Source of the DNA: a phage | Direction: 5' to 3' (one strand) | DNA: 64,000 nucleotides | Sequence record: PZ166176.1 | Shown: positions 1 through 54,656 of the stretch, piece by piece | How the letters are laid out: each line of letters opens with the position of its first letter | How positions within the stretch are numbered: position 1 is the first letter of the stretch | Translations under genes and position numbers: made by a program | Notes under the pieces: generated by a model | Seen by the model: the letters and a program-made list of their open reading frames with translations, nothing else | What the model was told of the DNA's origin: nothing | Database searches by the model: none

Positions 1-189
1 ACCGACCACTGGAAGATCTGGAGATGTTCTAACACGATAACCTGCCTGGAAAGCTCCAATATCGCAGACCTCTTCTAAATCATATTCTTCCCATAAGGCA
101 CGACCACTATCGGTGTCTGTTCGGAATGTTCTAATCCCACTATCTGCACTTAAACCTGCACCGCTTACAAAAATCACTCGTCTTGGCAT
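1..189 (-). CDS. Sir2-family (sirtuin-like) NAD-dependent protein, N-terminal part only; gene runs off the window start
   Basis: Minus-strand frame from ATG at 189..187 translates MPRRVIFVSGAGLSADSGIRTFR...GRALWEEYD, resembling the sirtuin GAGIS..SGIPTFR / GLW motif; absent from ORF track because truncated. Confidence 0.45.
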   Translation of the reverse strand, partial: MPRRVIFVSGAGLSADSGIRTFRTDTDSGRALWEEYDLEEVCDIGAFQAGYRVRTSPDLPVVG

Positions 190-677
190 TCTTCCTCCTC
201 ATAATCATCATAATCTTCGTCATCCAAATCGTACACTTCGTCTTGAGAATAACTCACTTCAAAGTAAATATCAAACTCCGCAAACAAACGTAGAATGTTG
301 GACATGCTATAATAATTATCGTAGGCAGATTCAGCTTCATAGTAAACATAAAGCAAATGGTTAGCCTTATCATCTTCCAAATATTTCCCGTCTGCATACG
401 CATAGTCTGCATATGCTTTACCTGCATCTTCCACAAGAGAACGATCAAGCAGAGTAGGAAATGGTTTCTCTTTTTCTTTTAGTTTGCTCACCAACCAGTG
501 TGCAATATTATGCCAATCTGCATCCTCTCCGCTGAAGCAGCTTGCGACTTCGCCAAACTTGGCATCTCCTAAGTCCCCGCTGATAGTGATCATGGTTGAA
601 CTATTGTAACCACAAGTTTCGCAATTTGAACAACTGTTGTGCACATGAATTTCTACTTGAAACATATTTCCTCCCAT
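174..677 (-). CDS. hypothetical protein (CxxC-containing N-terminus, strongly acidic C-terminus)
   Basis: Track ORF, 167 aa, co-oriented with neighbours; no motif recognised. Confidence 0.45.
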   Translation of the reverse strand: MGGNMFQVEIHVHNSCSNCETCGYNSSTMITISGDLGDAKFGEVASCFSGEDADWHNIAHWLVSKLKEKEKPFPTLLDRSLVEDAGKAYADYAYADGKYLEDDKANHLLYVYYEAESAYDNYYSMSNILRLFAEFDIYFEVSYSQDEVYDLDDEDYDDYEEEECQDE

Positions 678-723
678 AAAAGAAAAGCCCCCTGAAACAG
701 GAGGCTTTGTTCAGATGCTGGCA

Positions 724-1377
724 CTATACCAGACTTTGTAGGTATTTGTCAAGGGCTTCTTGATCGCCTTGACAAACATAGCAACGGAAGTCTTGAGCCG
801 AAGGTTGTTTATTTTCATCCCAGTCCCAATAAACATTACCCTTATAACGTGAACCAGGAAACTCAAAAGAGGCTGTATGTGTAATGTATCCTGGGCCACC
901 AGTGAAATCACAGAATGAGAATTGGGGGTATGCCGCCTTTACTGCCTCAATAAACCAAGCTTTACGATCTAAAGCTTCATTGATGCTATACGCATGTCTC
1001 TCCATTTCTTCCCACGTTTTCCAGACACTTCTCTCATCAGGAGAAAAGACAAGCCATTCTGGAAGGTATAGAGTGTCATAGTAATCATCATATTCGATCT
1101 CGGAGGCGCACGAAGCTGACTCCTCCAGTTTTGAGTAATCAAAAGCAGAATATACCCACCAACCATCTTCCAGTAACGCTTTGATAGGGACGAAGCCTTT
1201 ATCAGCATATTGATCGAATTGTTTGACACGGTGGCTTGTGCAGTCTTCAAACTCACATTCTAAACGATATGCACCTTTTCGACGAGCCTCAAGACCGTGT
1301 GTACTGAAAATAACAACACTTCCTTCACCATCATTACGATCTACTTGATAAGCAACCACTGGTTTTGAATTTGACAT
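724..1377 (-). CDS. hypothetical protein
   Basis: Track ORF, 217 aa; stop/start abuts next gene. Confidence 0.5.
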   Translation of the reverse strand: MSNSKPVVAYQVDRNDGEGSVVIFSTHGLEARRKGAYRLECEFEDCTSHRVKQFDQYADKGFVPIKALLEDGWWVYSAFDYSKLEESASCASEIEYDDYYDTLYLPEWLVFSPDERSVWKTWEEMERHAYSINEALDRKAWFIEAVKAAYPQFSFCDFTGGPGYITHTASFEFPGSRYKGNVYWDWDENKQPSAQDFRCYVCQGDQEALDKYLQSLV

Positions 1378-2060
1378 TATTTCTCCTTATCTAGAAGATT
1401 GTTAGACAAAAACACTGCACGAGCAAAACCACGTGCGGTTAGTGATCTAAGTTGTTTTGTTTTTGCACTAGCTCCACCTAAGCTTTTCCAACCCCAGAAG
1501 CAGCCTATATGATCTACTGGTTTCTTCACTGGTTGAACAAAACCATTGCCGTGCCAAATACAAGTTTTCTTTGTATACCCATCACGGGTAGGCATTTTAG
1601 GATGAAAGCTTCCTTCCTCTTCAAACAAATACCCACCATACTCATAAGGATCAAAGTAAAAATCGGGTTTACGCCATAAGGTTGAAAGTTTACCTACTGG
1701 GTTCTCAATCATCCAAGGAACATTATATTTGTTACCCAAAGCTTCCACTACACGAATATTAGCTAAAGCTTCATCCAATTCCTCTGTGCTGCGTTCGTGT
1801 TTGCTACCACTACCTGCTAACATAGTGCAAGGTGGAAATCCAAAAATAATATCGGGTTTAGGTATCCCATGATCTTCAGGGTTGAATGTAGAATCTATCC
1901 AGGCATTCACATAGGTTATGTTTGGGTGCTCCATCCTAACCTCGTATTTACCGTGATCCCCTTCATCAGCGTTTACACAAAAACACTTGTGACCTGCTTC
2001 GGCATAACGTAACACCATGATCCCAGATCCGTCAAACATAGACAAAACTGTTTTACTCAT
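1377..2060 (-). CDS. putative SAM-dependent DNA cytosine-C5 methyltransferase-like protein
   Basis: FDGSG (motif I-like), GFPPCT (PC motif IV-like), ENPVG (motif VI-like); start moved to internal ATG (MSKTV) preceded by GGAGGGG; catalytic Gln of PCQ replaced by Thr so function uncertain. Confidence 0.35.
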   Translation of the reverse strand: MSKTVLSMFDGSGIMVLRYAEAGHKCFCVNADEGDHGKYEVRMEHPNITYVNAWIDSTFNPEDHGIPKPDIIFGFPPCTMLAGSGSKHERSTEELDEALANIRVVEALGNKYNVPWMIENPVGKLSTLWRKPDFYFDPYEYGGYLFEEEGSFHPKMPTRDGYTKKTCIWHGNGFVQPVKKPVDHIGCFWGWKSLGGASAKTKQLRSLTARGFARAVFLSNNLLDKEK

Positions 2061-2466
2061 TACCCCTCCATTCAAGACAAGCCATAACTTTACGCCAATC
2101 ACTTTCTGTAAGAAAAATCTCGTTTGCTTTCTTCCACAAATCTAAATCGTGAAGGGTTGGAATACGATATGTTAGTTCACAGAATCTATGCTCTTCTTCT
2201 GTAATATAACCAAAATGCAGAGCCACATCGTGAAACCAACACCAACCATGCATCTCTCGAACAACATGGTCATGTTGAGACATTATTTTATGCCGTAAAC
2301 CTAACCAACAAGGAACAGATACTTTAGTAGTCTTTAATCTGTGATCAACAGTATTAGAGTATTCAATAATAGCTGTCAGTTTCAATCGTGCTTTTTCTAA
2401 ATCCTCATGCGTCACTTTGAAATAACTTTCTGAAAGATATCCACACATATTAATAACCTCCTTCAA
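2053..2466 (-). CDS. hypothetical protein
   Basis: Track ORF, 137 aa. Confidence 0.45.
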   Translation of the reverse strand: MKEVINMCGYLSESYFKVTHEDLEKARLKLTAIIEYSNTVDHRLKTTKVSVPCWLGLRHKIMSQHDHVVREMHGWCWFHDVALHFGYITEEEHRFCELTYRIPTLHDLDLWKKANEIFLTESDWRKVMACLEWRGNE

Positions 2467-3391
2467 AAGGCTTTACTACATGTTGATTAGCTTTAAAACG
2501 TTCAACATAGTCGTTTTCGCCCATGTTTTCATATAGCTTAATAACAACATAAAAGTTTTCCCAAGCATATTCCCTAAACCAACCACTAGTGATGGACGTG
2601 CAGACTTTAGATAAAGCCATTATAAAACTTTGCTTAGGGGTTGGACCTCCGATCTCTCCACCGAAAGGAATTTGTGAACGTTCCAAAGCCAAAACACACG
2701 CTTCTTCATAAACACCTAACAGGCGCACATGTTTTGGTTGAGCAAAAAACTTTTCTTTGCTGGTCATAACTTCACTTCCATCTTTCATATAAGATTTATA
2801 TGCCGGAGCATCCATTACCGCGATTGCTTCATGGATAGAATCATGATCATAAACATACGGAACCTCATCACCTTTAAAAAAGTCTTTACTTTTTACGTTT
2901 AAGTTCGGATGAGAGTAAGTGTATGTTTCTTTCTCACGCAACTCATAAATACTCTTAAGATTTTCTGGGATCTTTGCGCCCAGTGACCGCATGAAATGAA
3001 TATCTTTCATAGTTTTAAAGAAGTGAGGACTATCCTTTTTAAAACGATGACTCATTTTAAGAAGGTAGAGCACATCTAAAGGAGCAACAACATGTCCAGC
3101 GTAAGTTCGACGAACATCATCAGAATCTTCACAATAACTAATCAAAGCTTCTGTGCTATCTCCTTGAGAAGCAATATCGTATTCCAAATGTGCACCAGCT
3201 ATCATTTTGACATGGCCTTTGTTTCCTTTACGTTCTACAAGTTCAACAAACTCATCTTGAGAGAACATTTTTGATAATTCTTCCCACTCTTGTTCTGTAC
3301 ACAGGTAATCTAAATCTACACAAGGGCGATACAAGTCTTTTCCCATATCCATAGCATGAATTTGTAATGCACGGCTACCAATTAACACCAT
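2450..3391 (-). CDS. hypothetical protein (weak nucleotidyltransferase-like GS...DxD pattern)
   Basis: Track ORF 313 aa; N-terminal LIGSRAL...VDLDYL vaguely resembles a pol-beta-type NTase motif but spacing is atypical. Confidence 0.45.
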   Translation of the reverse strand: MVLIGSRALQIHAMDMGKDLYRPCVDLDYLCTEQEWEELSKMFSQDEFVELVERKGNKGHVKMIAGAHLEYDIASQGDSTEALISYCEDSDDVRRTYAGHVVAPLDVLYLLKMSHRFKKDSPHFFKTMKDIHFMRSLGAKIPENLKSIYELREKETYTYSHPNLNVKSKDFFKGDEVPYVYDHDSIHEAIAVMDAPAYKSYMKDGSEVMTSKEKFFAQPKHVRLLGVYEEACVLALERSQIPFGGEIGGPTPKQSFIMALSKVCTSITSGWFREYAWENFYVVIKLYENMGENDYVERFKANQHVVKPFEGGY

Positions 3392-3421
3392 AATATTTCT
3401 CCTCTATTGGTTGATAGGTTA

Positions 3422-3450
3422 AGTTTATCAAGCTTCCAGATTCCTGTCAA
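3422..3450 (-). promoter_or_regulatory. sigma70-like promoter (TTGACA-17-TAAACT) for gene 2450..3391
   Basis: Reverse complement reads TTGACAggaatctggaagcttgaTAAACT immediately after terminator hairpin. Confidence 0.45.
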
Positions 3451-3473
3451 TAAAAAACCCGCCGAAGCGGGTT
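3451..3473 (-). terminator. rho-independent terminator
   Basis: Minus strand: AACCCGCTTCGGCGGGTT hairpin followed by TTTTT. Confidence 0.55.
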
Positions 3474-3481
3474 ATTATTTA

Positions 3482-3754
3482 CTAACACATTGAGGAAGAA
3501 GAGATCCAAACACCTCTTGTGGTTAAACCATTTTCATCCAACTCTACACCATAATCTTCACAAATGAAATCAATATAGTGATCTGCGGCTGGCGTTCCTG
3601 TAGGGTAATAAGTTTCTCCGTTACCGTAGTCACCTATCCAAGCTTGTTCCTGAAACTGTTCACAAAGTTCTTCAATCTCCTTACGAAACTTTCTTTGTGC
3701 TTGTTCCATCTCTTTAACTTTCTTTTTTATCAGCAGTTCGCCTTCAGACTCCAC
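3482..3754 (-). CDS. small protein, member of W-x-SSS-C C-terminal tail paralog family
   Basis: GTG start after AAGGAGAG; C-terminus ...GVWISSSSMC. Confidence 0.5.
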   Translation of the reverse strand: MESEGELLIKKKVKEMEQAQRKFRKEIEELCEQFQEQAWIGDYGNGETYYPTGTPAADHYIDFICEDYGVELDENGLTTRGVWISSSSMC

Positions 3755-3763
3755 AATCTCTCC

Positions 3764-3982
3764 TTAACAGCTACTACTGTGCCAAACGCCTTGAGAATTA
3801 ACGACGAAACCATCATCACCTTCACCATAACAAGAAGAGGATTGCCAATCTTCAAAACAGATTGCGTCATTTTCTAAACTAAGACCAAAACCAGCATCTT
3901 CAGCTTCTTTTGTAAGTTCGTCCACTAAAGCCATAATAGCTTGGGCTTTTTCAGTTAATTCTTCAACATTACGATCACTCAT
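3764..3982 (-). CDS. small protein, W-x-SSS-C tail paralog
   Basis: Start set at internal ATG (MSDRN) overlapping stop of upstream gene; C-terminus ...GVWHSSSC. Confidence 0.5.
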   Translation of the reverse strand: MSDRNVEELTEKAQAIMALVDELTKEAEDAGFGLSLENDAICFEDWQSSSCYGEGDDGFVVNSQGVWHSSSC

Positions 3983-4296
3983 TAGTATTTCTCCTCTGGT
4001 TGGAAAACTGAACGACAAGCCCACATACTAGCTTCTTTTAAATGTTTAATAGCACAACGGATTTGATCAATACGTTCGTATGTAAGATCTAATTCTTTTT
4101 CTGTGCCGTCAAAAGACCCATGATATGCTTCACAATACTCTTCCTCTAAAGCTTTGAAGATTAAACCTAAACGCTCTTCTGCATCTTTAATAGCGTTAAC
4201 CTTGCCAATCTTATCGTCAGTATGCGCCTTATAACCTTTGATATCTTCGATTCCCACTTTACCTCCTATTAACAACTTAAAGAAGATGGATGCCAA
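3982..4296 (-). CDS. hypothetical protein
   Basis: Track ORF 104 aa. Confidence 0.45.
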   Translation of the reverse strand: MASIFFKLLIGGKVGIEDIKGYKAHTDDKIGKVNAIKDAEERLGLIFKALEEEYCEAYHGSFDGTEKELDLTYERIDQIRCAIKHLKEASMWACRSVFQPEEKY

Positions 4297-4466
4297 TTTG
4301 TTCCAGTATTCTCATTTTCATCTTCTGGATCATAATAGCCACCCATCCCATATTCAGGGGAGAAACGGAAACCTTTACCAGTCTCATCTGCTAACTGCTC
4401 TGCTTCCGCTAAAGCCTCATAAGCTGCTTTTACGGCTTCTTCTACTGTTTTAAACTTGGTCGTCAT
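4269..4466 (-). CDS. small protein, W-x-SS-x-SC tail paralog
   Basis: C-terminus ...NWHPSSLSC. Confidence 0.45.
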   Translation of the reverse strand: MTTKFKTVEEAVKAAYEALAEAEQLADETGKGFRFSPEYGMGGYYDPEDENENTGTNWHPSSLSC

Positions 4467-4740
4467 AAAATTTCTCCTCTCCTAAAGACATGTTGACATG
4501 AAATGCACGATATGTAAATTCGTTGTCCGTTGTGTTTGAATAAAACTCAAATTGAACAACACCGTCTTGAGAAGACAGATACATGCCAATTTGAACTGTT
4601 CCTTCTGGTACCAGGTAAGCATACTCTGGACGTAGTGTTACATTGTAAAAATAAAGTTCCCCAACACCCATTTCATCCCAAGCTTCCCAAGCGGTAACGA
4701 AGTTACTTTCAAAACTTGTTACTGATCCGAACTCTGCCAT
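4450..4740 (-). CDS. hypothetical protein
   Basis: Track ORF 96 aa. Confidence 0.45.
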   Translation of the reverse strand: MAEFGSVTSFESNFVTAWEAWDEMGVGELYFYNVTLRPEYAYLVPEGTVQIGMYLSSQDGVVQFEFYSNTTDNEFTYRAFHVNMSLGEEKFYDDQV

Positions 4741-5231
4741 AAAACCTCCTCAATCTTGTAGTTTGACTCCATCTCCAACACATTTCCACGAACGTCTCTC
4801 CGAAGAAAGGCATAAGCTTTATTAGGTATTGTAGACTCATATTTAACCATATCTGGTACAGCAAAAGATACTACTACTCCTGCTGGGCTTCTGTCAAGAG
4901 CCTTATTAATATTTCTAAGGATATCGTTAGCCAAGATTTCTGCCAATTCTCCAAGAACGGTTTCGGTTATATCTTTATATCCCATTAAGTATTTGTTGAT
5001 ATCTTTCATCTCTGTATTGTTCAGAGTATAATCCAAAGGATAGAAATTCAAAGCGGAGTCACTTTTATGTGTCCACATGAAATGCACCCGATCCGAGCAG
5101 AATCGTAACCCTCTTTGAAGAATATCTTCTACAACAGGCAGAATTTCTTTTGTCACATCATTAACCATGTTGTAATCTAAGATTTCTGCCAAGTTTGTTC
5201 TTTGTTCACCACGTTTACGTTTAGGAATCAC
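4719..5231 (-). CDS. hypothetical protein
   Basis: Track ORF 170 aa. Confidence 0.45.
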   Translation of the reverse strand: MIPKRKRGEQRTNLAEILDYNMVNDVTKEILPVVEDILQRGLRFCSDRVHFMWTHKSDSALNFYPLDYTLNNTEMKDINKYLMGYKDITETVLGELAEILANDILRNINKALDRSPAGVVVSFAVPDMVKYESTIPNKAYAFLRRDVRGNVLEMESNYKIEEVLWQSSDQ

Positions 5232-5826
5232 TTGTTATTGCCCTCATTACCAAAGGTCGTAGAAAATCGTAAATCTCTTGTTTTGTTTTCCCACGAATGT
5301 TTAAACAAGGAACATTATTGGCTTTAGCTATCTTCCAAGCCGTAGCTGTTCCACCTTTTGCATCTCCATGTTTATCAGTATTAGCACAAGCCAACAAGAA
5401 ACATGATGGAGCAGGATTCTCCAAATCTCTACCTAACACTTGATGCACATTACGTTGGTGCAATTTTCTAGCACCCTGCTTAAGCTTTTCATAGGCTGGG
5501 TGAACATCTTTGATCCATTGCACAGAAATAGCATAGTTCATTGTATCTGGTTTTGCAAGAACAATAACATCCCCTGGAATCTGATTACCTTTGAAATTTT
5601 CCCAAGGAACATAAATCTCCTTGTTAGTAGGATTTTCAGACTCTTGGACACCTGTTTCAAAAGCAGAATCACTACCCTCTGCCTTCCCAGACCTTAATTT
5701 AAACCCAAGGTTTGAAAGCCATTTCCCTATGCCTACCATCAAAGCCCACTCTTCTTCGGATATGTCTCTACTTCCAACTCCCGTATAGAACAGTTCTGCC
5801 ATAATCACCTCAACAAGTAATTTCAA
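5221..5826 (-). CDS. DprA/Smf-like SLOG-domain (Rossmann-fold nucleotide-binding) protein
   Basis: TGVGSRD...RSGKAEGSDSAFETG matches the GSR...SGxAxGxDxxA signature of DprA/LOG-type SLOG domains. Confidence 0.45.
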   Translation of the reverse strand: MKLLVEVIMAELFYTGVGSRDISEEEWALMVGIGKWLSNLGFKLRSGKAEGSDSAFETGVQESENPTNKEIYVPWENFKGNQIPGDVIVLAKPDTMNYAISVQWIKDVHPAYEKLKQGARKLHQRNVHQVLGRDLENPAPSCFLLACANTDKHGDAKGGTATAWKIAKANNVPCLNIRGKTKQEIYDFLRPLVMRAITSDS

Positions 5827-25515: not shown

Positions 25516-26241
25516 TTACTTATTAATAATACCTGCAATATTAGGTTTGACAAAGGTCGATGGTTTCATGATCTTACCTTTATCATCAAAGAACACATAC
25601 ACTTTCTGTTTTTCATTATAAACAGCATGAACACCAGTGTATGCCCCTTCTGGACGATTGGCATTTCGTTCTTCAATTGCAGCGCATTCTTGTGCAATGG
25701 CTGAATCGATATCTGAAGTTTTCCAAGTTTTCAGCAACTGTTGTTTAGTTGGATACTTGGAATCATTACTTTTCAATACCTCTTTAATAACTTTCTTTTC
25801 TGGATATTTTGAACGGATTAGAGTGTCACGAGACATACGCATAATACCAGCAGCCATTAGTGCCATTTGAACTGGCTCTGTAAATGTTTGTTCCAAAGCA
25901 TCAAAATCAGTATATACAGTTGGAGTAAAAACATCGCCTACAGCATAGTCCAAGAAATTCATCGTATGTTCTTCACCAAAGAACATGTAAGTAAGATAAC
26001 TGGATACTACAAAAATATCCGCTGCTGCATCCAAGAGTTCTACATGATCGTTTACTTTCGCGGCTGTTTCATACTCTTTAAGCTCTTCACGAACGAACCC
26101 GATTTGGGACATAAATAGCTCTTGAGTGAATTCAGGTTGTTCACCACCTCGTGCTTTGGCATTCCAATCAATCACGTGCTTTGCTGCATTTTTGAAAAAT
26201 TCAGTATCGAATTTAATATCTTTAAAAAAATTCTCGATCAT
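25516..26241 (-). CDS. MazG-like nucleotide pyrophosphohydrolase (tentative)
   Basis: EQPEFTQELFMSQIGFVREELKEYE...DHVELLDAAADIFVV resembles the all-alpha NTP-PPase EExxE...D metal-binding pattern. Confidence 0.4.
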   Translation of the reverse strand: MIENFFKDIKFDTEFFKNAAKHVIDWNAKARGGEQPEFTQELFMSQIGFVREELKEYETAAKVNDHVELLDAAADIFVVSSYLTYMFFGEEHTMNFLDYAVGDVFTPTVYTDFDALEQTFTEPVQMALMAAGIMRMSRDTLIRSKYPEKKVIKEVLKSNDSKYPTKQQLLKTWKTSDIDSAIAQECAAIEERNANRPEGAYTGVHAVYNEKQKVYVFFDDKGKIMKPSTFVKPNIAGIINK

Positions 26242-26250
26242 TATAACTCC

Positions 26251-26433
26251 TTATTTAAAATAGCTTTCTAGAAAGTTGCTAATATTTACTACAGTCTCAC
26301 CCATGTAAATTCCTGCGAAACCGAAAACAAGCATACGTGGAATATTGAAATACCATTTATCCGCCGGAAAAGATGCCAGAATTACAATAGCAATGGCTAT
26401 CAACATCATAAGAATTGTTGCTAAAATTATCAT
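26251..26433 (-). CDS. small membrane protein (2 predicted TM helices)
   Basis: Start at internal ATG (MIILATIL) after GGAGG; hydrophobic stretches IILATILMMLIAIAIVILA and MLVFGFAGIYMG. Confidence 0.4.
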   Translation of the reverse strand: MIILATILMMLIAIAIVILASFPADKWYFNIPRMLVFGFAGIYMGETVVNISNFLESYFK

Positions 26434-26624
26434 AAAAATGCCTCCAGGTATTTTGCACAATGATAAGCTAAGAAACAAGAAACTACCGCATACCCAACTC
26501 CAGACATACATGAATCAATCGCAATACATACGGTTCTTTTCTTTGAATTCTTAGGAAAGCTTTCCGAAGCATTCATACAATAAAAAGAAAGCACACTGAA
26601 AACGATTAAAATGGCTAAGAACAT
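26430..26624 (-). CDS. small membrane protein (2 predicted TM helices)
   Basis: FLAILIVFSVLSFY and VGYAVVSCFLAY hydrophobic segments; stop overlaps next start. Confidence 0.4.
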   Translation of the reverse strand: MFLAILIVFSVLSFYCMNASESFPKNSKKRTVCIAIDSCMSGVGYAVVSCFLAYHCAKYLEAFL

Positions 26625-26633
26625 TTTTCCTCC

Positions 26634-27761
26634 TTATTCTGCTGGTTCCCAAGTGCCTGGGATCATTTCTCGAATACGAACACCAACAGGTTTTGTTGGA
26701 ATACCTTCATCTGAAAATTCTTCATACTCTATTTCAACAAACTGGTTAATCAAGGTAGAAGCATTCTCTGCTTTACGATAATTGATAGTCTCATGAGCAT
26801 CTTTACGCATTAAGAATTCGACTACTTTACCATTTTCCATCTCACCTGTCAACACTCCATCGCCATTTTTATCACTTTTTGAATTTGTTACTTTAACTTC
26901 AAGGGTATGGCGAGGCTTACGTTTAATAACGTCATAAGAACGTTTATCAAATTCGTAAACTCCGTGAGCATTACGATATACTACACCTTCAGCTTTCTCA
27001 AGTAAAGCTTTTTCATAGAAAGCATCAAACTGTTCTTGGTTTTCAATAAACTCTGTATGAACTACACAAATAAGCTCGTCAAGACCATAATCTTCAACTA
27101 CTGCCTTAAGAGCAGCAAGAACATCAACACGTTTTTCAAACGGTAGATCTGGAACTGGAATATCGTATACGTAATAGTTCAGCAAAGGTGTATTTGCATT
27201 ATGCTTCTTCCAGGCACTGTTAATTTGTTGTAGACTAAGGACACCTAACCCAGCAAACACTTCACCATCAAGAGGATGACCAACAACTTCACTAATAAAG
27301 TTTGGAATACCTTTCCAATGAGGTGGCAGGTTGTACACTTCCCCAGCTTTTGATAAACACTCCCCTTTCATGTTAATCATAGAACGCAACCCGTTCAGTT
27401 TGTACTGTGCATAACCAGGGAACACAACCCTTTCAGGATAATCTTTATAATCCTGGCATTTCATTGGTGTGGAAGGAACATGGTTTTCAGCTTCTTCTTT
27501 TGTTTTATAATAGCCATTCTTTAACTGTTTTGTCCATTTGGCAAAAGCTTCAAGTTCAGCTTGTTCTTCCGGTGTTGTTTCATTGGAACGACCAATGTTT
27601 TTTGCTTCTGCTGTATAAGATTTTTCTGTGATTTTTCCACCTACTCTTCCATGAGCTACAGTAACAACTGCACCATCTGTATACACTGTCCACTGTTTAA
27701 GTTTTCCTTTTGAATCTTTACCATACAGCGTTTGATTTGTTTGTTGCATTAGTCCTCCCAT
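26634..27761 (-). CDS. ATP-dependent polynucleotide ligase (DNA ligase-like)
   Basis: Motif I KLNGLR (KxDGxR-like with Asn), motif IV EGVVYR, motif V DVIKRK; size similar to T7-type ligases. Confidence 0.55.
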   Translation of the reverse strand: MGGLMQQTNQTLYGKDSKGKLKQWTVYTDGAVVTVAHGRVGGKITEKSYTAEAKNIGRSNETTPEEQAELEAFAKWTKQLKNGYYKTKEEAENHVPSTPMKCQDYKDYPERVVFPGYAQYKLNGLRSMINMKGECLSKAGEVYNLPPHWKGIPNFISEVVGHPLDGEVFAGLGVLSLQQINSAWKKHNANTPLLNYYVYDIPVPDLPFEKRVDVLAALKAVVEDYGLDELICVVHTEFIENQEQFDAFYEKALLEKAEGVVYRNAHGVYEFDKRSYDVIKRKPRHTLEVKVTNSKSDKNGDGVLTGEMENGKVVEFLMRKDAHETINYRKAENASTLINQFVEIEYEEFSDEGIPTKPVGVRIREMIPGTWEPAE

Positions 27762-27970
27762 TTAAAAACTGAAATTTTCAATCTGTTACACACTTCATCC
27801 AAATCTGCGTCGAGTAACGTTGTAGATGTTGCCAACATGTAATCAATGCTTGTGAAACCTTGCCCTTTGGCATAGTCAAACATATCTTCATACATATCTT
27901 CAAGATCACCGTCATCAAAAGTAGCTAGAAAATCCTCGTCTCCGCTACGAACATAAAATGCAGTACTCAT
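27749..27970 (-). CDS. hypothetical acidic protein
   Basis: Track ORF 73 aa. Confidence 0.4.
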   Translation of the reverse strand: MSTAFYVRSGDEDFLATFDDGDLEDMYEDMFDYAKGQGFTSIDYMLATSTTLLDADLDEVCNRLKISVFKWED

Positions 27971-28155
27971 TCTTCTTCATCCCAAGATTCAAAAGCACAA
28001 CAATCATCGGTTTCTATAATACCAACACGTCCGCAGGTATTGCAAGTGATTTTATCCCCGTAGAATAAATAATTTTTATCACCCTCTGTGTTTACAGTTA
28101 TGTCATTACTACCACAAGGGCAAGTCAGCCAACCAACAACGATATCTTTTTTCAT
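27967..28155 (-). CDS. small zinc-ribbon protein
   Basis: CPCG ... CNTCG cysteine pairs. Confidence 0.4.
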   Translation of the reverse strand: MKKDIVVGWLTCPCGSNDITVNTEGDKNYLFYGDKITCNTCGRVGIIETDDCCAFESWDEEE

Positions 28156-28164
28156 AATCCCTCC

Positions 28165-28491
28165 TTAAGCGTTAAGTTCGTTGTTGAGTTCGTAAATCTC
28201 TTCTTGAAGAGCATCAATCTCTTCCTCCAAACGGGAGATCTCTTCTTTTAGATATACCATTTCGGATTCTTTCTCTTCTAATTCATTTTCAAATTTTACT
28301 TTATTAGCCTCATTTTCATAATTCAGTTCAGCGTAATCATCACGCATTTGTTCAATAAGATGAATCAGAGACAAGATGTAATTGTCTCCCGTTTCATCAC
28401 GCCACTCTTCACCGTGACGGAGAACGGTAATTCGTCCAGTATCTTCATCTAAAATTGTCTCATATTTACGATCATCTGTATAAATCTGCAT
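28165..28491 (-). CDS. hypothetical coiled-coil protein
   Basis: Glu/Leu-rich heptad-like C-terminal half. Confidence 0.4.
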   Translation of the reverse strand: MQIYTDDRKYETILDEDTGRITVLRHGEEWRDETGDNYILSLIHLIEQMRDDYAELNYENEANKVKFENELEEKESEMVYLKEEISRLEEEIDALQEEIYELNNELNA

Positions 28492-28500
28492 TATTTCTCC

Positions 28501-28905
28501 TTATTGAAGTTTAAGTGAACCACGAAGACGTTTCTCTTGCTGATCACGGATATATTGTGGAACCTCGTGAATTGAATCATTACCGTGCCTATTTTCAACA
28601 ACTAAAGAGATAACTTGATAACCAAACTCTTCAGCAAGAGCTAAATAAGGTTTAAGTTCTTTCTCTGTGGTTGAAGTATTAGAAACAATAATCTTGTTAA
28701 GATTAGATGCCATAGCATCACGAACAATACCCTGACACCATGCGTGTGCTTTACCTACATTTTCTGGCTTCCAATCGTAAACACCACTCTCTGTGTAATG
28801 ATATTGATCTGCCTCACAGATAGGCCAATAACCTTCAGAAATAATTTCTGCTACTGTAGATTTACCAGCACCTGAAACGCCACGTAAAATGATAAGTTGT
28901 TTCAT
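28501..28905 (-). CDS. P-loop polynucleotide 5'-kinase (T4 Pnk kinase-domain-like)
   Basis: Walker A GVSGAGKST; overall pattern parallels the T4 Pnk kinase domain (P-loop, then IIVSNTS.. block). Confidence 0.55.
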   Translation of the reverse strand: MKQLIILRGVSGAGKSTVAEIISEGYWPICEADQYHYTESGVYDWKPENVGKAHAWCQGIVRDAMASNLNKIIVSNTSTTEKELKPYLALAEEFGYQVISLVVENRHGNDSIHEVPQYIRDQQEKRLRGSLKLQ

Positions 28906-29838
28906 TTATCCTCCAAAAAAGTTTTCGATTTTTTCACGTCGTTCTTGCTGATTTAAAGCAGCCCATTGAATCTTCGTAAAATTATTTTGAATCCATTCTA
29001 ACAAAGCGTAATATTCTTCGTCAACCATTTGTTTGGCATTTTTTGGATTATCCCAAATCAGATCCCACTTTTTATCTCCACCGCGCATAAGAAACTTCTT
29101 AGTAAGATAGTGTGGTGATTTAATTTTTAAAAGTAAGTTGAACGGATAGTTTGTTTCACGAACTACAAACCCTTCGTGTTTACAATGTTTAGACATTTCA
29201 ACAACATCTGAAAACTTAACCATTGGATGAACTTCAGGACGCTTAAATTTGGTGACAGAAGCAATTCCATCAAGAGCACCTTCAGGTAACATAAAACTTG
29301 TCCCATCAGGATTTTGAATTCTGGCACCAATTAAGTATGCACCTGGTTCTTCTTCGACAATATGCGGATCAGAAGGATCACAGATTTCAAAAAGGAAAGT
29401 TGCTTTTGCACTCTCTGTCCATTTGATGAAATGTTCTATGTCATCACACTCTGAAACAATATGATTCTTTGCAATACTTGCAAAATCTGATTCAAGGCTT
29501 CCTGTTGTCGATACAATAAGTTGACCTTTATATACACCTACAGAGGCCATAAAACCATTTATTTTACGAACCACATCTACAAGTTCATCCGCTGGTAGAT
29601 CTGTGCCATTCTCAAAACGATTAAAAATCTTAGTGAAAGGCCAAATAACAACATTGTCATCAGCATCAACAACGATTCCGCGACATTCTAGAAGACGAGA
29701 ATCAATGCTCCATAAGTTATCCCAGAAAACTTTGTTCTTATACTTAAGAACAGATAGACCAGAATACTCTCCTTCTTTATATGTTTTCTTATGAACTAAA
29801 CCTTTTTCAACCAAATCGTCGCAATTAAATTTAGCCAC
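28906..29838 (-). CDS. RNA ligase-like nucleotidyltransferase
   Basis: Motif I KINGFMAS (KxNG as in Rnl1/tRNA-ligase type), motif IV EGFVVRE, motif V LLLKIK; abuts the kinase and phosphoesterase genes. Confidence 0.5.
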   Translation of the reverse strand: MAKFNCDDLVEKGLVHKKTYKEGEYSGLSVLKYKNKVFWDNLWSIDSRLLECRGIVVDADDNVVIWPFTKIFNRFENGTDLPADELVDVVRKINGFMASVGVYKGQLIVSTTGSLESDFASIAKNHIVSECDDIEHFIKWTESAKATFLFEICDPSDPHIVEEEPGAYLIGARIQNPDGTSFMLPEGALDGIASVTKFKRPEVHPMVKFSDVVEMSKHCKHEGFVVRETNYPFNLLLKIKSPHYLTKKFLMRGGDKKWDLIWDNPKNAKQMVDEEYYALLEWIQNNFTKIQWAALNQQERREKIENFFGG

Positions 29839-29839
29839 A

Positions 29840-30391
29840 TTATTCTCCTTTGATTATTTTGTGATGGTCTACAGTCACGATATCTCGTTTACTCATCATA
29901 GAAATTATCTCATCAAAATGCAAGATTTTTCCGTGTGCATCCCAACCCACATCTAACATTTTACCATAAGCTTCATCAGGGAAAGATCCGTGGGAATGCC
30001 CGTGTAGCATGATTGATCCACGACCTTGTTTATTCCAGGAGGCCATAGGGTAATGGCTTAAGACGAAGAACAGCTTCTGATATTTCACTTCGTCATAATA
30101 CACCACTTCTCCATACTCTGCAAGCACTTCTCGGTGTTTGCTGTAGTCATGGTTCCCAACACAGTAGGTGATATCTCCTTGAAGACGGGAAGCAATTTTA
30201 CGGGTATCTTCTTCAGTTCCGAAACAGAAGTCGCCCAAATGCCACATCTTAACACCAGGAGTAGTAGCACATTTGTTCCATGCTTCGATCAAGGCTTCTG
30301 TCATGTGGTCCATATCTTCCCACGGACGATATTCAGGAGCAAACTCTCGAATACGTTTATGCATAAAATGCAAATCGCTTGTAATAAACAT
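29840..30391 (-). CDS. calcineurin-like metallophosphoesterase (RNA-end-healing phosphatase candidate)
   Basis: DLHF, GDFCFG, GNHD, HGHSH metal-binding motifs. Confidence 0.6.
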   Translation of the reverse strand: MFITSDLHFMHKRIREFAPEYRPWEDMDHMTEALIEAWNKCATTPGVKMWHLGDFCFGTEEDTRKIASRLQGDITYCVGNHDYSKHREVLAEYGEVVYYDEVKYQKLFFVLSHYPMASWNKQGRGSIMLHGHSHGSFPDEAYGKMLDVGWDAHGKILHFDEIISMMSKRDIVTVDHHKIIKGE

Positions 30392-30747
30392 TAGTATAAT
30401 CCCTCGCTAAATAATTCATGGTCGTGACCATTACGCTCATGGTCGATCTGGTCAGCATTTTCCGCGATGATGTAAGCATCCGCACGACTCCACCAATTGT
30501 AATACTGATCGATAAAGCCTTGATTATCTGGTGTGCACAAAGTTTTGTTGATTACACCTGCTTCTTTCAACACGTTTAACTGTGCATATAGTACAGGATT
30601 TGCATGTCGAACACAAGGAATAATTAATTCTTCACCATTATTCAAAATATACTTATTTGCAGCACAGACGATAACACGTTGCGCATAATGACCCTCACCC
30701 ATCCAGGTAAGAGGTTGGTAACAAATGTTGTTTTCAATACCACTCAT
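30391..30747 (-). CDS. hypothetical protein
   Basis: Track ORF 118 aa; start overlaps upstream stop. Confidence 0.45.
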   Translation of the reverse strand: MSGIENNICYQPLTWMGEGHYAQRVIVCAANKYILNNGEELIIPCVRHANPVLYAQLNVLKEAGVINKTLCTPDNQGFIDQYYNWWSRADAYIIAENADQIDHERNGHDHELFSEGLY

Positions 30748-30906
30748 TGTTTCCTAATCCTCCTCTCTTAAATTATCCTCGAAAAAACTAGTATCTGGAA
30801 GTAAAAGATCATTGCTTGTGTCGGGCCAATCCTCTTCTTCTCTGTAGATAAAGTAACCTTCGTCCTCTTCTTGTTCCGACCAAACCGAATGATGCATGTT
30901 CTCTCC

Positions 30907-31251
30907 TTAGTAGTGCACACGAATCATTTTAATACCATAACGCTGCATGAATTCTTTTGCAAGCATGAATTTATCCCCAGCGGCGGGATTAGAAGTATGC
31001 ACGAAAATGGTAGGTGAACCAAAGCAAGGTTTACCAAACGCCAGAAGTTCTTCCAGGTGCAGGAAAACATCATACCCATCTTGGTCTGACTCCATACCTA
31101 AATCATTGTCAAAAGACCACTCGGTTACTCTTCGATACAGTTTAGCAGGATCATTGAGAAAGGCCATAGCTTCTTGTGACGTTTTAAACCAAATTGCATC
31201 TTCCTGTCCATAGTCGGCTGGGTTCCGCATATCATCTATCCAAACTTTCAT
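30907..31251 (-). CDS. hypothetical protein
   Basis: Track ORF 114 aa. Confidence 0.45.
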   Translation of the reverse strand: MKVWIDDMRNPADYGQEDAIWFKTSQEAMAFLNDPAKLYRRVTEWSFDNDLGMESDQDGYDVFLHLEELLAFGKPCFGSPTIFVHTSNPAAGDKFMLAKEFMQRYGIKMIRVHY

Positions 31252-35005: not shown

Positions 35006-35080
35006 GGCCCTGTAGCTCAATGGGAGAGCTGTCGGCTCATAACCGATAGGTAGCTGGATCGAAACCAGCCAGGGCCACCA
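35006..35080 (+). tRNA. tRNA with CAT anticodon (resembles tRNA-Ile2 / elongator Met)
   Basis: Hand-folded cloverleaf: acceptor GGCCCTG/CAGGGCC, anticodon loop CTCATAA, T-loop ATCGAAA, encoded CCA. Confidence 0.7.
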
Positions 35081-35082
35081 AC

Positions 35083-35157
35083 GTCTTTATGGTGTAATGG
35101 ATAGCACAGGAGTCTTCTAAACTCTTAGTCAAGGTTCGATTCCTTGTAAAGACACCA
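35083..35157 (+). tRNA. tRNA-Arg (TCT)
   Basis: Acceptor GTCTTTA/TAAAGAC, anticodon loop CTTCTAA, T-arm CAAGG-TTCGATT-CCTTG, CCA. Confidence 0.7.
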
Positions 35158-35158
35158 G

Positions 35159-35342
35159 AACATTTTAACATGAATTAGCTCAAGTGATTTGAACCCACTA
35201 CTGATCATGGTGGCAGAGAATGAGGCAAGTATGTCAGACATTATAAACAAAGGCCACGGTTATATTAGAAGACATAAATGCTCGAAGAGCACCGTTCGTT
35301 GAGAACGGGGGTTGGTGGAGTCACCATTCATGGTAAAATGTT
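35159..35342 (+). ncRNA. structured RNA of about 185 nt following tRNA-Arg
   Basis: 5' AACATTTTAACATGAAT pairs with 3' ATTCATGGTAAAATGTT (one mismatch); no ORF. Confidence 0.35.
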
Positions 35343-35353
35343 TTAAAAAACTA

Positions 35354-35384
35354 TTGACAACTAACATTATTTTATGTTAGATTA
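35354..35384 (+). promoter_or_regulatory. sigma70-like promoter (ctaTTGACAa ... TGtTAGATT)
   Basis: TTGACA and extended -10-like element upstream of tRNA-Ser. Confidence 0.45.
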
Positions 35385-35391
35385 TAAGTAT

Positions 35392-35482
35392 GGAAGGGCA
35401 AATCGACGTGGCGACGAAAACGGTCTTGAAAACCGCCGAGCTTGAAAGAGCCTTGGGAGTTCGACTCTCCCTCCTTCCGCCA
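35392..35482 (+). tRNA. tRNA-Ser (TGA), long variable arm
   Basis: Acceptor GGAAGGG/TCCTTCC, anticodon loop CTTGAAA, long variable arm, T-arm GGGAG-TTCGACT-CTCCC, G73-CCA; D-arm atypical. Confidence 0.55.
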
Positions 35483-35486
35483 GATT

Positions 35487-35572
35487 GGTAGATTGGTGAA
35501 ATGGTAGCCACGACAGTTTGCTAAACTGTAGTCGGAAACGGCGTGTAGGTTCGAGTCCTACATCTACCGCCA
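35487..35572 (+). tRNA. tRNA-Ser (GCT), long variable arm
   Basis: Acceptor GGTAGAT/ATCTACC, anticodon stem ACAGT/ACTGT loop TTGCTAA, variable arm AGTCGGAAACGGCGT, G73-CCA. Confidence 0.7.
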
Positions 35573-35578
35573 AATTAA

Positions 35579-35664
35579 GATGAGTTGGCTGAATGGTTTA
35601 AGCGGCGGACTGTTAATCCGTGTTCGAAAGAACGATATAGGTTCAAATCCTATACTCATCGCCA
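35579..35664 (+). tRNA. class II (long variable arm) tRNA with GTT (Asn) anticodon; identity ambiguous
   Basis: Acceptor GATGAGT/ACTCATC (7 bp), anticodon stem GCGGA/TCCGT loop CTGTTAA, variable arm GTTCGAAAGAACGAT with GTTC/GAAC stem, T-arm ATAGG-TTCAAAT-CCTAT, G73-CCA. Confidence 0.55.
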
Positions 35665-35671
35665 GAATTAT

Positions 35672-53222: not shown

Positions 53223-53636
53223 GTGACAACTTATTCTAAAACAACAAGGTCTACAAGTAATACAGGCTACAGTGCAGTTTATCTGGAGGACCATTCTACT
53301 TATTTTGCATGGTATCTGAAAACTGAAGAGTACCCTGATCAAACATATACAGTTACATTGGATGGAGTTGATTATGACATTCGTTTAAGGTGGAACACTA
53401 GGGACGAGTCTTGGCAATGTCAGATGGGATTATCTGGAGATGATCCAAGTATAAGTTTCAAAGTTACAAATGGTTTAGATCTTCTTAAACCTTATAAATA
53501 TCTTGAAAGTGTTCCAGATGGTCAATTGTATATAGTAGATACAGTTAAGATTAATGGTCGTCCTGGGTATACAACTACAGGTCGAGATAAACGTTTTGTA
53601 TTGGTTTATATTGATAACAAACCTAATCAGGCGTAA
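53223..53636 (+). CDS. baseplate assembly protein
   Basis: 137 aa, GTG start. Confidence 0.35.
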   Translation: MTTYSKTTRSTSNTGYSAVYLEDHSTYFAWYLKTEEYPDQTYTVTLDGVDYDIRLRWNTRDESWQCQMGLSGDDPSISFKVTNGLDLLKPYKYLESVPDGQLYIVDTVKINGRPGYTTTGRDKRFVLVYIDNKPNQA

Positions 53637-53645
53637 GGAGATAAT

Positions 53646-54656
53646 ATGGCAGAAAGAGAGTATACAAAAGCTCCTGCCCCTAATTTAAACAGGGCATACA
53701 AATTATTAATTGGTTCTGCCACAAACACAATACAGAAGAGAACTAAGAACTCGGCATTTAAATCTACAGTAGATTTGGATACCAAGTTAGGGACAACAGA
53801 AAAATCCTCTTCTAATTTGTATTTGTTGCAAGACCATCAAATAACCTTCAGCATTAAGAAAGATAATAACAAAGATCCTAACCAAGCAGAGATTGTAGTT
53901 TATAACCTTTCGGATGATACTGTTAATTATATAAACCGTGGTATCCGAAATAACTTGGCTGTTGCTTTAGCGGTAGGATACGAAGGTGAAGAGTTGGTTA
54001 TGATCTTCAAAGGAACTATCCAATGGGTTAGTGATACTTTTGACTCGGTAGACAGGAAAACCACTTTACACTGTTTGGATGGCGGTATTAACATTGCAGA
54101 AGCAAGAACAAGCCGCAGTTATCCAAAAGGAACTAAAATCAAACGTGTTGTGACAGATTTGGTAAAGGATTTAGGAACTACAGAAGGTAATATACACGTA
54201 GATAATGATCAAACCTTATCTTCAGCAACAGCTATGTGTGGAAACACTTCACATTACCTAGAACATATTTGTAAAAGTATTGATCACAATGTGTCAATAC
54301 AAGATGGATCTGTTTATGTTACTCCTCGTTCACAAATGTCTAGTGCACGTAGCGCCTATATTAGCCCTGAAACTGGTCTGATAGGAAGTCCAGAACCATT
54401 CCACAACGATATAAAACCTACTAAAAAAGTTACCAAGTCCTCTAAGAAGGCAAAGAAACCTACAGATGGTGTTAAATTCAAATGCCAAATGAATGGTGCA
54501 ATATTACCAGAAAAAACAATCTGGTTAAAAAGCCGAGATTATGACGGTCCATTTAAAGTTGTTTCTGTTTCTCACAATGGTGATAAAGAGGGTAAAGAGT
54601 GGGTTACTGAAGTGGAGTGTGTATCCGTGTCTGAAATAATGACTAAGGAGAAATAA
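53646..54656 (+). CDS. baseplate hub-like protein
   Basis: 336 aa directly upstream of spike gene. Confidence 0.4.
   Translation: MAEREYTKAPAPNLNRAYKLLIGSATNTIQKRTKNSAFKSTVDLDTKLGTTEKSSSNLYLLQDHQITFSIKKDNNKDPNQAEIVVYNLSDDTVNYINRGIRNNLAVALAVGYEGEELVMIFKGTIQWVSDTFDSVDRKTTLHCLDGGINIAEARTSRSYPKGTKIKRVVTDLVKDLGTTEGNIHVDNDQTLSSATAMCGNTSHYLEHICKSIDHNVSIQDGSVYVTPRSQMSSARSAYISPETGLIGSPEPFHNDIKPTKKVTKSSKKAKKPTDGVKFKCQMNGAILPEKTIWLKSRDYDGPFKVVSVSHNGDKEGKEWVTEVECVSVSEIMTKEK

Follow-up and report, generated by a model that had tools for sequence, protein, structure and literature searches.

Sirtuins of phages have been treated in the literature before. Skliros et al. 2016 (PMC5107563) modelled the protein of KVP40-type phages on CobB; at the sites which hold the zinc ligands in bacterial sirtuins this protein has salt bridges, and deacetylation of host Acs was proposed as its function. 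Iyer et al. 2022 (PMC9503650) described a distinct sirtuin clade of proteobacterial phages and predicted, in section 3.7.3, a KptA-like role in RNA repair from the gene neighbourhoods. For this clade our literature search returned in-silico proposals only and no experimental characterisation or assay; the 2026 NARP3 paper has the host Sir2-HerA as its subject and not the phage sirtuins. The gene analysed here is already known: it is annotated, it is catalogued as a PHROG, and its clade has already been compared.

Using tblastn we found homologues in 982 of 50,697 phage records (~2%), among them T5-like, rV5-like, KVP40-like and jumbo phages. Many of these 982 records annotate the gene as Sir2, and likewise many Phapecoctavirus genomes list it as "Sir2 / NAD-dependent deacetylase". 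Identity is 90-100% to the proteins of Phapecoctavirus and Justusliebigvirus and 91-94% to other sirtuins from Stephanstirmvirinae. It amounts to 54-62% for T5-like Demerecviridae and Mydovirus, to about 49% for rV5-like Vequintavirus, and to about 38% for KVP40-like Vibrio phages and jumbo phages such as Serratia BF.

The window, i.e. the whole stretch of 64,000 nucleotides (PZ166176.1) which was analysed, shares 97% identity over its first 3 kb with ESCO13, phAPEC8_ev052, Schickermooser and dozens more Phapecoctavirus genomes (Stephanstirmvirinae). By its sequence the window belongs to a phAPEC8-like Escherichia phage (Phapecoctavirus). On the minus strand, positions 1-189 form 63 codons without a stop, MPRRVIFVSGAGLSADSGIRTFRTDTDSGRALWEEYDLEEVCDIGAFQAGYRVRTSPDLPVVG, and this frame is open at the window start. 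The translation, the match to Pfam SIR2 and the N-terminus of near-identical proteins mark it as the 5' end of a sirtuin gene, with its ATG at 189-187 (-) and the other 208 codons outside the window start. The visible part spans Rossmann strand 1 with the NAD-binding motifs GAGLS and SGIRTFR, and it also holds the flexible cofactor loop TDTDSGR, the invariant EVC motif and the beginning of a variable insert. A Shine-Dalgarno sequence read directly from the DNA (GAGGAGG, 194-200, minus strand) lies 4 nt 5' of the ATG within the final codons of the upstream gene, and in ESCO13 a ribosome-binding site is annotated at the equivalent place. Taken by itself, the Pfam score of the 63-residue fragment (SIR2 model positions 1-45, E 9.6e-5) is only suggestive, as 22.8 bits are above chance but miss the curated cutoff of 24, so that it would not secure the family call.

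The full-length form could be taken from close relatives. A lookup with the protein of the upstream window gene gave three contigs that encode it unchanged. L005 (NCBI assembly contig, 151 kb) shares 99.5% identity with window positions 1-4665 (4,665 nt), while L006 matches the window with 99.6% identity over 768 nt. Both encode one identical sirtuin of 271 aa, of which residues 1-63 equal the window fragment exactly; on L005 its gene occupies 4477-5292. The ESCO13 orthologue, gp057, also has 271 aa and differs from this protein in 2 residues, and intact 271-aa orthologues were present in every close relative checked. By these matches, window 1-189 is the 5' end of an intact gene of 816 nt which is predicted to encode a single-domain sirtuin of the PHROG 2162 clade.

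An earlier note, made from the letters of the window, had called the frame a truncated Sir2-like gene at the window edge and had pointed to the NAD-binding signature of this family in the 63 visible codons. The family and the signature were borne out, as the ESCO13 orthologue passes Pfam SIR2 as well as phrog_2162 and both motifs are present. The word "truncated" applies to the window edge alone: nothing points to a gene that is itself cut short, and the near-identical contigs L005 and L006 carry the complete 271-aa ORF. The few codons visible and the score below the Pfam cutoff could be taken to mean that the frame is open by chance or is left over from a truncated or inactive gene. We regard this as extremely improbable and effectively refuted, given the strong Shine-Dalgarno sequence, the overlap with the upstream stop codon, the whole orthologues just mentioned, and 44 alignment columns, catalytic residues included, which are invariant across 120 homologues.

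SIR2 (PF02146) is the sole Pfam family reported for ESCO13 gp057, which reaches 79.8 bits and is above the gathering threshold. Against phrog_2162, named "Sir2 (NAD-dependent deacetylase)", the same protein scores 348 bits (E 6.4e-104, residues 2-271). The two NCBIfam models for CobB/deacylases remain far under their cutoffs (NF001753, 105.1 vs 243 bits; NF040867, 85.3 vs 320), and none of the PADLOC defence models matched at E <= 0.01. Among solved structures, CobB (1s5p) ranks first by sequence (E 4.9e-19), followed by Sir2Af2, Sir2Af1, Sir2Tm and SIRT5. The AlphaFold2 model of the 271-aa protein, built from the 120 homologues, has a pLDDT of 91.7 and a pTM of 0.89 and is uncertain only at the cofactor loop 24-30. 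It has the two-domain fold of sirtuins, with a beta-ribbon predicted at E136-144 and E152-155, and forms a single domain with no fused sensor or effector domain. A Foldseek search against the PDB gave 273 matches at E <= 0.001, of which the best 50 are all sirtuins of the Sir2 family; among the matches listed CobB is at the top (E 3e-17, TM 0.85 on target, 28% identity), and Sir2Af1 and SIRT5 come next.

Residue conservation was studied in the alignment of the 120 homologues which gave the 44 invariant columns; residues past codon 63 lie outside the window and were taken from L005, the contig with 99.5% identity. Within the window fragment S14, S17, F22, R23, W33, V41 and C42 are invariant. 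The first four belong to the cofactor loop motif GAGxS...SGIxxFR, which aligns to GAGISAESGIRTFR of CobB. The class-III YxxR motif is found as FYNKRR, compared with FYNARR in CobB, and its Y80, R83 and R84 are invariant. The same holds for P92, N93 and H96 (PNAAH), for N116 and D118 of the NAD pocket around the nicotinamide ribose, for F175, F176 and E178 of the FGE loop, and for S205 and N229. The catalytic H135 and the following G136 (HG) are invariant too, and VIHVHG aligns here with VIHMHG of CobB. In sirtuins the FGE loop acts as the substrate beta-staple, and in SIRT5 the YxxR motif binds acidic acyl groups. As NAD+-binding and catalytic residues are invariant in all 120 homologues, the protein is predicted to be almost certainly active, and we are highly confident of its place in the phage sirtuin clade and of its catalytic competence.

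Some features depart from the canonical pattern. The QNID motif reads TNVD, its glutamine being replaced by an invariant Thr115. Further, the small domain keeps its predicted beta-ribbon but is without the four zinc-binding cysteines: in the homologue alignment no conserved Cys or His was found at residues 136-170, and Tyr, Ile, Asp and Asn stand where CobB has its cysteines. Among distant relatives, drawn from representatives of 1.8 billion proteins, the CxxC...CxxC pattern returns together with TQNID. Zinc loss and the exchange of Gln for Thr thus co-occur in the sampled relatives and, as far as these alignments indicate, mark a sub-clade. This co-occurrence suggests that the small domain, which faces the substrate, has been remodelled.

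The earlier note had proposed an HMM search for the SIR2 domain and for the catalytic histidine, and regarded a full-length protein lacking either this histidine or the zinc-binding module as speaking against the assignment. The search of the full-length orthologue gave the score reported above together with a histidine in the conserved HG motif; the histidine is kept, and the zinc module is absent. To demand the zinc module would exclude too much, since by its fold, its catalytic residues and its Pfam score the protein belongs firmly to the family. We also considered whether another protein provides the zinc module in trans as a general feature of the clade, and rejected the idea: in SP15, Hena1 and phi-pp2 no such domain occurs in the small ORFs next to the sirtuin, and the protein encoded next to the sirtuin in the window has no Pfam match. 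The roles suggested in the earlier note, namely that the protein could deacylate or ADP-ribosylate host factors or manipulate NAD+ pools, are hypothetical, and the one prediction in the literature that draws on gene context is that of RNA repair.

The sirtuin gene closes a long block of minus-strand genes and forms a two-gene unit with a gene for a protein of 163 aa (174-665, minus strand; from the ORF list, phrog_9509, E 3.5e-63). The stop codon of the latter (176-174) overlaps the start of the sirtuin gene by 16 nt, so that the sirtuin ATG lies within its last codons, and this overlap suggests that both genes are translationally coupled. The 163-aa protein has conserved residues H9, C15, C18 and C43 in its alignment and an acidic C-terminal tail. 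It is confined to the phage's own lineage, with only 8 clusters of homologues, all of at least 66% identity. No Pfam match was found for it even at E <= 1, and none in NCBIfam or PADLOC; its AlphaFold model (pLDDT 81.8) gave no significant fold match in the PDB (best E 0.05, TM 0.25). Two observations had prompted the idea of a zinc module in trans, which was rejected above as a general feature: in Serratia phage BF a Phage_zn_bind_2 protein (80 bits) is encoded directly upstream of the sirtuin, and the conserved residues of the 163-aa protein are His and Cys.

Scanning for consensus patterns, we found a terminator-like hairpin (684-708, minus strand; 11-bp stem and T-run) between the gene of a 217-aa protein and the 163-aa gene, which would form the upstream boundary of the two-gene unit. 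Just upstream of this hairpin lies a sigma-70-like sequence (723-752, minus strand; TTGACA-18-TATAGT, 11/12 matches, with an extended -10 TG), a candidate for the promoter of the unit. A second hairpin follows directly after the sirtuin stop, beyond the window (L005 5300-5317). All of these signals are pattern matches only. The immediate neighbours of the sirtuin gene are a phage ORFan and a gene for a 90-aa protein. The latter, which follows the sirtuin, carries the RefSeq name "Sir2-like protein"; this name is unsupported, as the protein has no match to the Pfam SIR2 family and gives E 1.8 in BLASTP against the sirtuin. Further upstream, at a distance of 1-4 kb on the minus strand, a DNA methyltransferase (phrog_757) and a protein with the Acb2/Tad1 hairpin domain (61 bits) are encoded.

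In other phages the setting is different. In WalterGehring, a Vequintavirus, the genes for RNA ligase, a cREC protein (Pfam 55 bits), the sirtuin and a MazG-like protein follow one another, while PNK and a phosphoesterase are encoded divergently from this row, and the cluster in Mydovirus and Henunavirus is as in WalterGehring. In the T5-like SP15 the sirtuin is followed, after one gene, by HAD_SAK_2 (72.7 bits). The order in Serratia phage BF is NAMPT, a 2H protein, the Phage_zn_bind_2 protein, the sirtuin and a Nudix-cREC fusion; the 2H neighbour matches Pfam Acb1, the anti-CBASS phosphodiesterase (56 bits), and NAMPT is encoded two genes further upstream. Beside the sirtuin of the KVP40-like phi-pp2 no annotated RNA-repair neighbours were seen. 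The published linkage between sirtuin and RNA-repair genes is confirmed in lineages other than that of the window.

The genes which flank the sirtuin in Vequintavirinae are all kept in the window, on the same strand as the sirtuin and 25-31 kb away from it. Pfam matches identify a MazG-like pyrophosphohydrolase (25519-26250), an ATP-dependent DNA ligase (26634-27761), a P-loop protein of 134 aa with a kinase and without a phosphatase domain (28501-28905), an RNA ligase of the T4 Rnl1 type (28906-29838) and a calcineurin-like phosphoesterase (29840-30391), all on the minus strand. The cREC domain protein (30907-31251, minus strand) was found with phmmer, using the cREC protein of WalterGehring against the window ORFs (E 2e-35); the ORF at 30391-30747, which had been considered as its homologue, shows no similarity. 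The gene set 25519-31251 (minus strand) thus comprises possible functional partners of the sirtuin under the RNA-repair hypothesis, and 10 tRNA genes lie at 35006-36710.

For the reaction we propose that the sirtuin would bind NAD+ and expel nicotinamide, and that C1'' of the ADP-ribose would be joined to an oxygen nucleophile held beside the anion-binding pocket of Tyr80, Arg83 and Arg84. In a second step His135 would activate a ribose hydroxyl, which would then attack the adduct. The readings of the protein differ in the acceptor. If this were an acyl-lysine on host or phage proteins, the enzyme would work as a deacetylase or desuccinylase of the CobB/SIRT5 type and would release nicotinamide and O-acyl-ADP-ribose in early-to-middle infection. 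By analogy with the characterised relatives we take acyl-lysine to be the single most likely acceptor, although we put its chance at somewhat less than even. The nearest relatives by sequence and by fold (best 50 of 273) are deacylases, YxxR and FGE are invariant, and the PADLOC search for defence models was negative. Against it stand the distance from the curated NCBIfam cutoffs for CobB and deacylases, the lost zinc ligands and the change from QNID to TNVD. Host CobB is reported to restrict T4 (PMC4271551), so that the benefit of an extra generic deacetylase for a phage would be less obvious. A nucleic-acid substrate is favoured, further, by the RNA-end-processing genes that adjoin the sirtuin of Vequintavirinae, of T5-like phages and of a jumbo phage.

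Such a substrate is envisaged in the proposal of Iyer et al. (PMC9503650), in which the phage enzyme would act in the manner of Tpt1/KptA and transfer ADP-ribose from NAD+ onto the 2'-phosphate of cleaved or religated (t)RNA. The ribose 2''-OH would then attack the phosphate, giving ADP-ribose 1''-2'' cyclic phosphate and clean RNA. Together with the phage kinase, Rnl1 ligase, phosphoesterase and cREC protein, the sirtuin would so finish the repair of tRNAs cut by host anticodon nucleases. We put its probability near one third, nearly tied with deacylation. It gains from the recurrent linkage to cREC, HAD_SAK or 2H plus ligase and kinase genes in other lineages, from the presence of every partner gene in the window with the tRNA genes nearby, and from a window kinase that consists of the kinase alone. 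The two-step chemistry of sirtuins would be formally analogous to that of Tpt1, the invariant Tyr/Arg/Arg pocket could hold a phosphate, and the small domain appears remodelled. Because the two reactions are, as we see it, chemically analogous, the conserved residues fail to separate Tpt1-like action from deacylation. On the other hand, the sirtuin of this phage is 25-31 kb from the RNA-repair genes in a terminator-flanked two-gene unit of its own, phi-pp2 is without annotated neighbours of this kind, and the contexts in Vequintavirinae represent one inherited arrangement and not independent events. A calcineurin-like phosphoesterase could also heal ends without a 2'-phosphate intermediate, and sirtuin action on an RNA 2'-phosphate has no known biochemical precedent. 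Unlikely, in our estimate, is a further reading, in which the protein would be an NAD+ glycohydrolase or a mono-ADP-ribosyltransferase and would serve counter-defence or the take-over of the host, with a host protein, a defence component, or NAD-derived or nucleotide immune signals as target; it covers the idea of the earlier note that the protein may bear on NAD-depleting defence. Zinc-less SIR2 domains of known defence systems are NADases, the Acb2/Tad1-type sponge and DNA methyltransferases are encoded in the same minus-strand block, the Serratia BF neighbours include the Acb1-like 2H protein and NAMPT, and coupling to a lineage-specific acidic protein would fit a module with an accessory role or one shaped by an arms race. 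However, the closeness of genes within an early region of a phage says little; the PADLOC models gave no match, the best 50 of 273 fold matches are deacylases, the single domain of 271 aa has no sensor or effector fused to it, and depletion of NAD+ would hurt the phage's own replication.

Acyl-lysine stays our preferred acceptor, at the strength given above, and the finding of a sirtuin gene in this place is correct but ordinary. Still, with homologues in ~2% of the records searched, the phage sirtuin is predicted to be among the most widespread phage enzymes which plainly consume NAD+, and NAD+ is a central theme in current work on the conflict between phages and hosts. In this phage the sirtuin gene stands apart from the RNA-repair genes that normally adjoin it and is coupled instead to a new partner, which makes the phage a useful test case provided by nature. 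We tentatively suggest that the zinc-less clade may apply sirtuin chemistry to an oxygen of a phosphate group in nucleic acids or nucleotides and perhaps does not deacylate proteins. This may take the form of the Tpt1-like removal of 2'-phosphates in tRNA repair or, less likely, of the inactivation of nucleotide immune signals. If true, a new catalytic role would be added to those of the sirtuin fold, and phages, given 982 records with a homologue, would have in it a widespread counter-measure. The RNA version was already proposed in silico in 2022, so that the novelty would be in the demonstration alone.

Among the known systems compared, KptA/Tpt1 is a possible functional analogue only. These enzymes carry out a two-step ADP-ribosyl transfer from NAD+, and the predicted analogy draws on the gene neighbourhoods in other phages; their fold is unrelated to that of sirtuins (PMC9503650), and the phage protein is thus not a member of the Tpt1 family. 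The SIR2 NADases of defence systems (ThsA, DSR1/2, SIR2-HerA, SPARSA) have in common with it the fold of the SIR2 superfamily and NAD+ as substrate, which for the phage protein is predicted. Defence-associated SIR2 domains are likewise without the zinc ribbon. The phage sirtuin differs from them in that no sensor, HerA or Argonaute is fused or adjacent to it, that it is encoded by a lytic phage and that its nearest folds are deacylases.

The class III desuccinylases/deacylases SIRT5 and Sir2Af1 match its fold with E about 1e-13 to 1e-15 and share the YxxR motif, which is invariant in the phage sirtuin, although the identity is only 18-26% and the phage protein has no zinc ligands. E. coli CobB (PDB 1S5P, 6RXJ), a class III NAD+-dependent deacylase, is the best match by sequence and fold, and the motifs GAGxSxxSGIRTFR, FYNxRR, PNAAH, N-[IV]-D, HxHG and FGE are common to both. 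In contrast to CobB, the phage protein is without the zinc cysteines, has TNVD in place of QNID and GCSNQVIN in place of GTSGHVYP, and has two insertions, one of 4 residues (TDxxSG) within the cofactor loop and a variable one at residues 45-72. Its place is in the phage clade of PHROG 2162, together with phAPEC8/ESCO13 gp057, phi92 gp038, the T5-like sir2, the rV5-like proteins and KVP40 Sir2/CobB, and it shares the zinc-less ribbon and the motif TTNVDD of this clade. The window sirtuin does not have beside it the RNA ligase, kinase, cREC or HAD genes that flank its counterparts in Vequintavirinae and T5-like phages; it stands at the end of a long minus-strand block, with the lineage-specific 163-aa gene as its partner.

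Directly upstream of the sirtuin gene lies a gene for a lineage-restricted ORFan protein of 163 aa (phrog_9509; window 174-665, minus strand), and its position suggests translational coupling to the sirtuin. In this protein the residues H9, C15, C18 and C43 are invariant, and its tail is acidic (DDEDYDDYEEEE). The structure, a beta-sheet with helices, was predicted with confidence (pLDDT 81.8), and a fold search of the PDB with this model gave no significant match. Further upstream on the same strand, a near-consensus sigma-70-like promoter (723-752; 11/12 matches, extended -10) and, directly downstream of it, a strong terminator-like hairpin (684-708) were found, both as pattern matches only. 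The hairpin would form the first part of any transcript starting from the promoter-like site, and it may both end upstream transcription and make the 5' end of the newly started RNA more stable.

The minus-strand block shared with the sirtuin includes, 3.8 kb upstream of it, a gene for a 91-aa protein (3982-4257, minus strand) matching the Acb2/Tad1 hairpin domain of Pfam (PF24729, 61 bits, E 1.3e-16). As a candidate sponge, this protein may bind signalling nucleotides of CBASS or Thoeris. A 313-aa protein (2450-3391, minus strand) matches the Pfam families DUF7277 and DUF7275 (255 bits), and a 201-aa protein (5221-5826, minus strand) has no Pfam match despite being annotated as DprA-like in the related Escherichia phage ESCO13.

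Just beyond the window start, after the sirtuin, the 151-kb contig carrying the complete sirtuin gene encodes a 90-aa protein (L005 5336-5608, plus strand; phrog_15991, gp056 of ESCO13), whose gene has a terminator of its own. RefSeq names it 'Sir2-like protein'. Pfam finds no SIR2 match and BLASTP no similarity to the sirtuin (E 1.8); the name is unsupported and looks like annotation carry-over.

In Serratia phage BF, the gene adjoining the sirtuin (L008 3281-3953) is annotated as 'RNA ligase' and matches the Pfam family Acb1, an anti-CBASS 2H phosphodiesterase (56 bits); a 71-aa Phage_zn_bind_2 protein (80 bits) is encoded directly upstream of the sirtuin, and NAMPT two genes further upstream. 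At L010 3501-4238, in Vibrio phage phi-pp2, the Sir2/CobB CDS has its annotated start at locus position 3573. Tblastn similarity to the sirtuin begins at 3501 (query residue 4) and the first residue of the annotated protein aligns to sirtuin position 32, past the GAGxS...SGIxxFR motifs; therefore the annotated start looks to be too far downstream, unless there is a frameshift.

Where the minus-strand early block switches to plus-strand genes, an array of 10 tRNA genes is located (Met, Arg, Ser, Asn, Thr, Gly, Gln, Pro, Ile, Met; window 35006-36710, plus strand). By its predicted gene content, window 28501-31251 (minus strand) is a compact RNA-repair cluster, comprising a 134-aa P-loop protein (AAA_33) with a kinase domain only, an RNA ligase of the T4 Rnl1 type, a calcineurin-like phosphoesterase, an unassigned gene of 118 aa and, at 30907-31251 (minus strand), a gene for a protein with a cREC domain, the ESCO13 counterpart of which (record 53442-53786) is annotated 'hypothetical protein'. 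While T4 Pnkp possesses a phosphatase domain, the 134-aa kinase does not.
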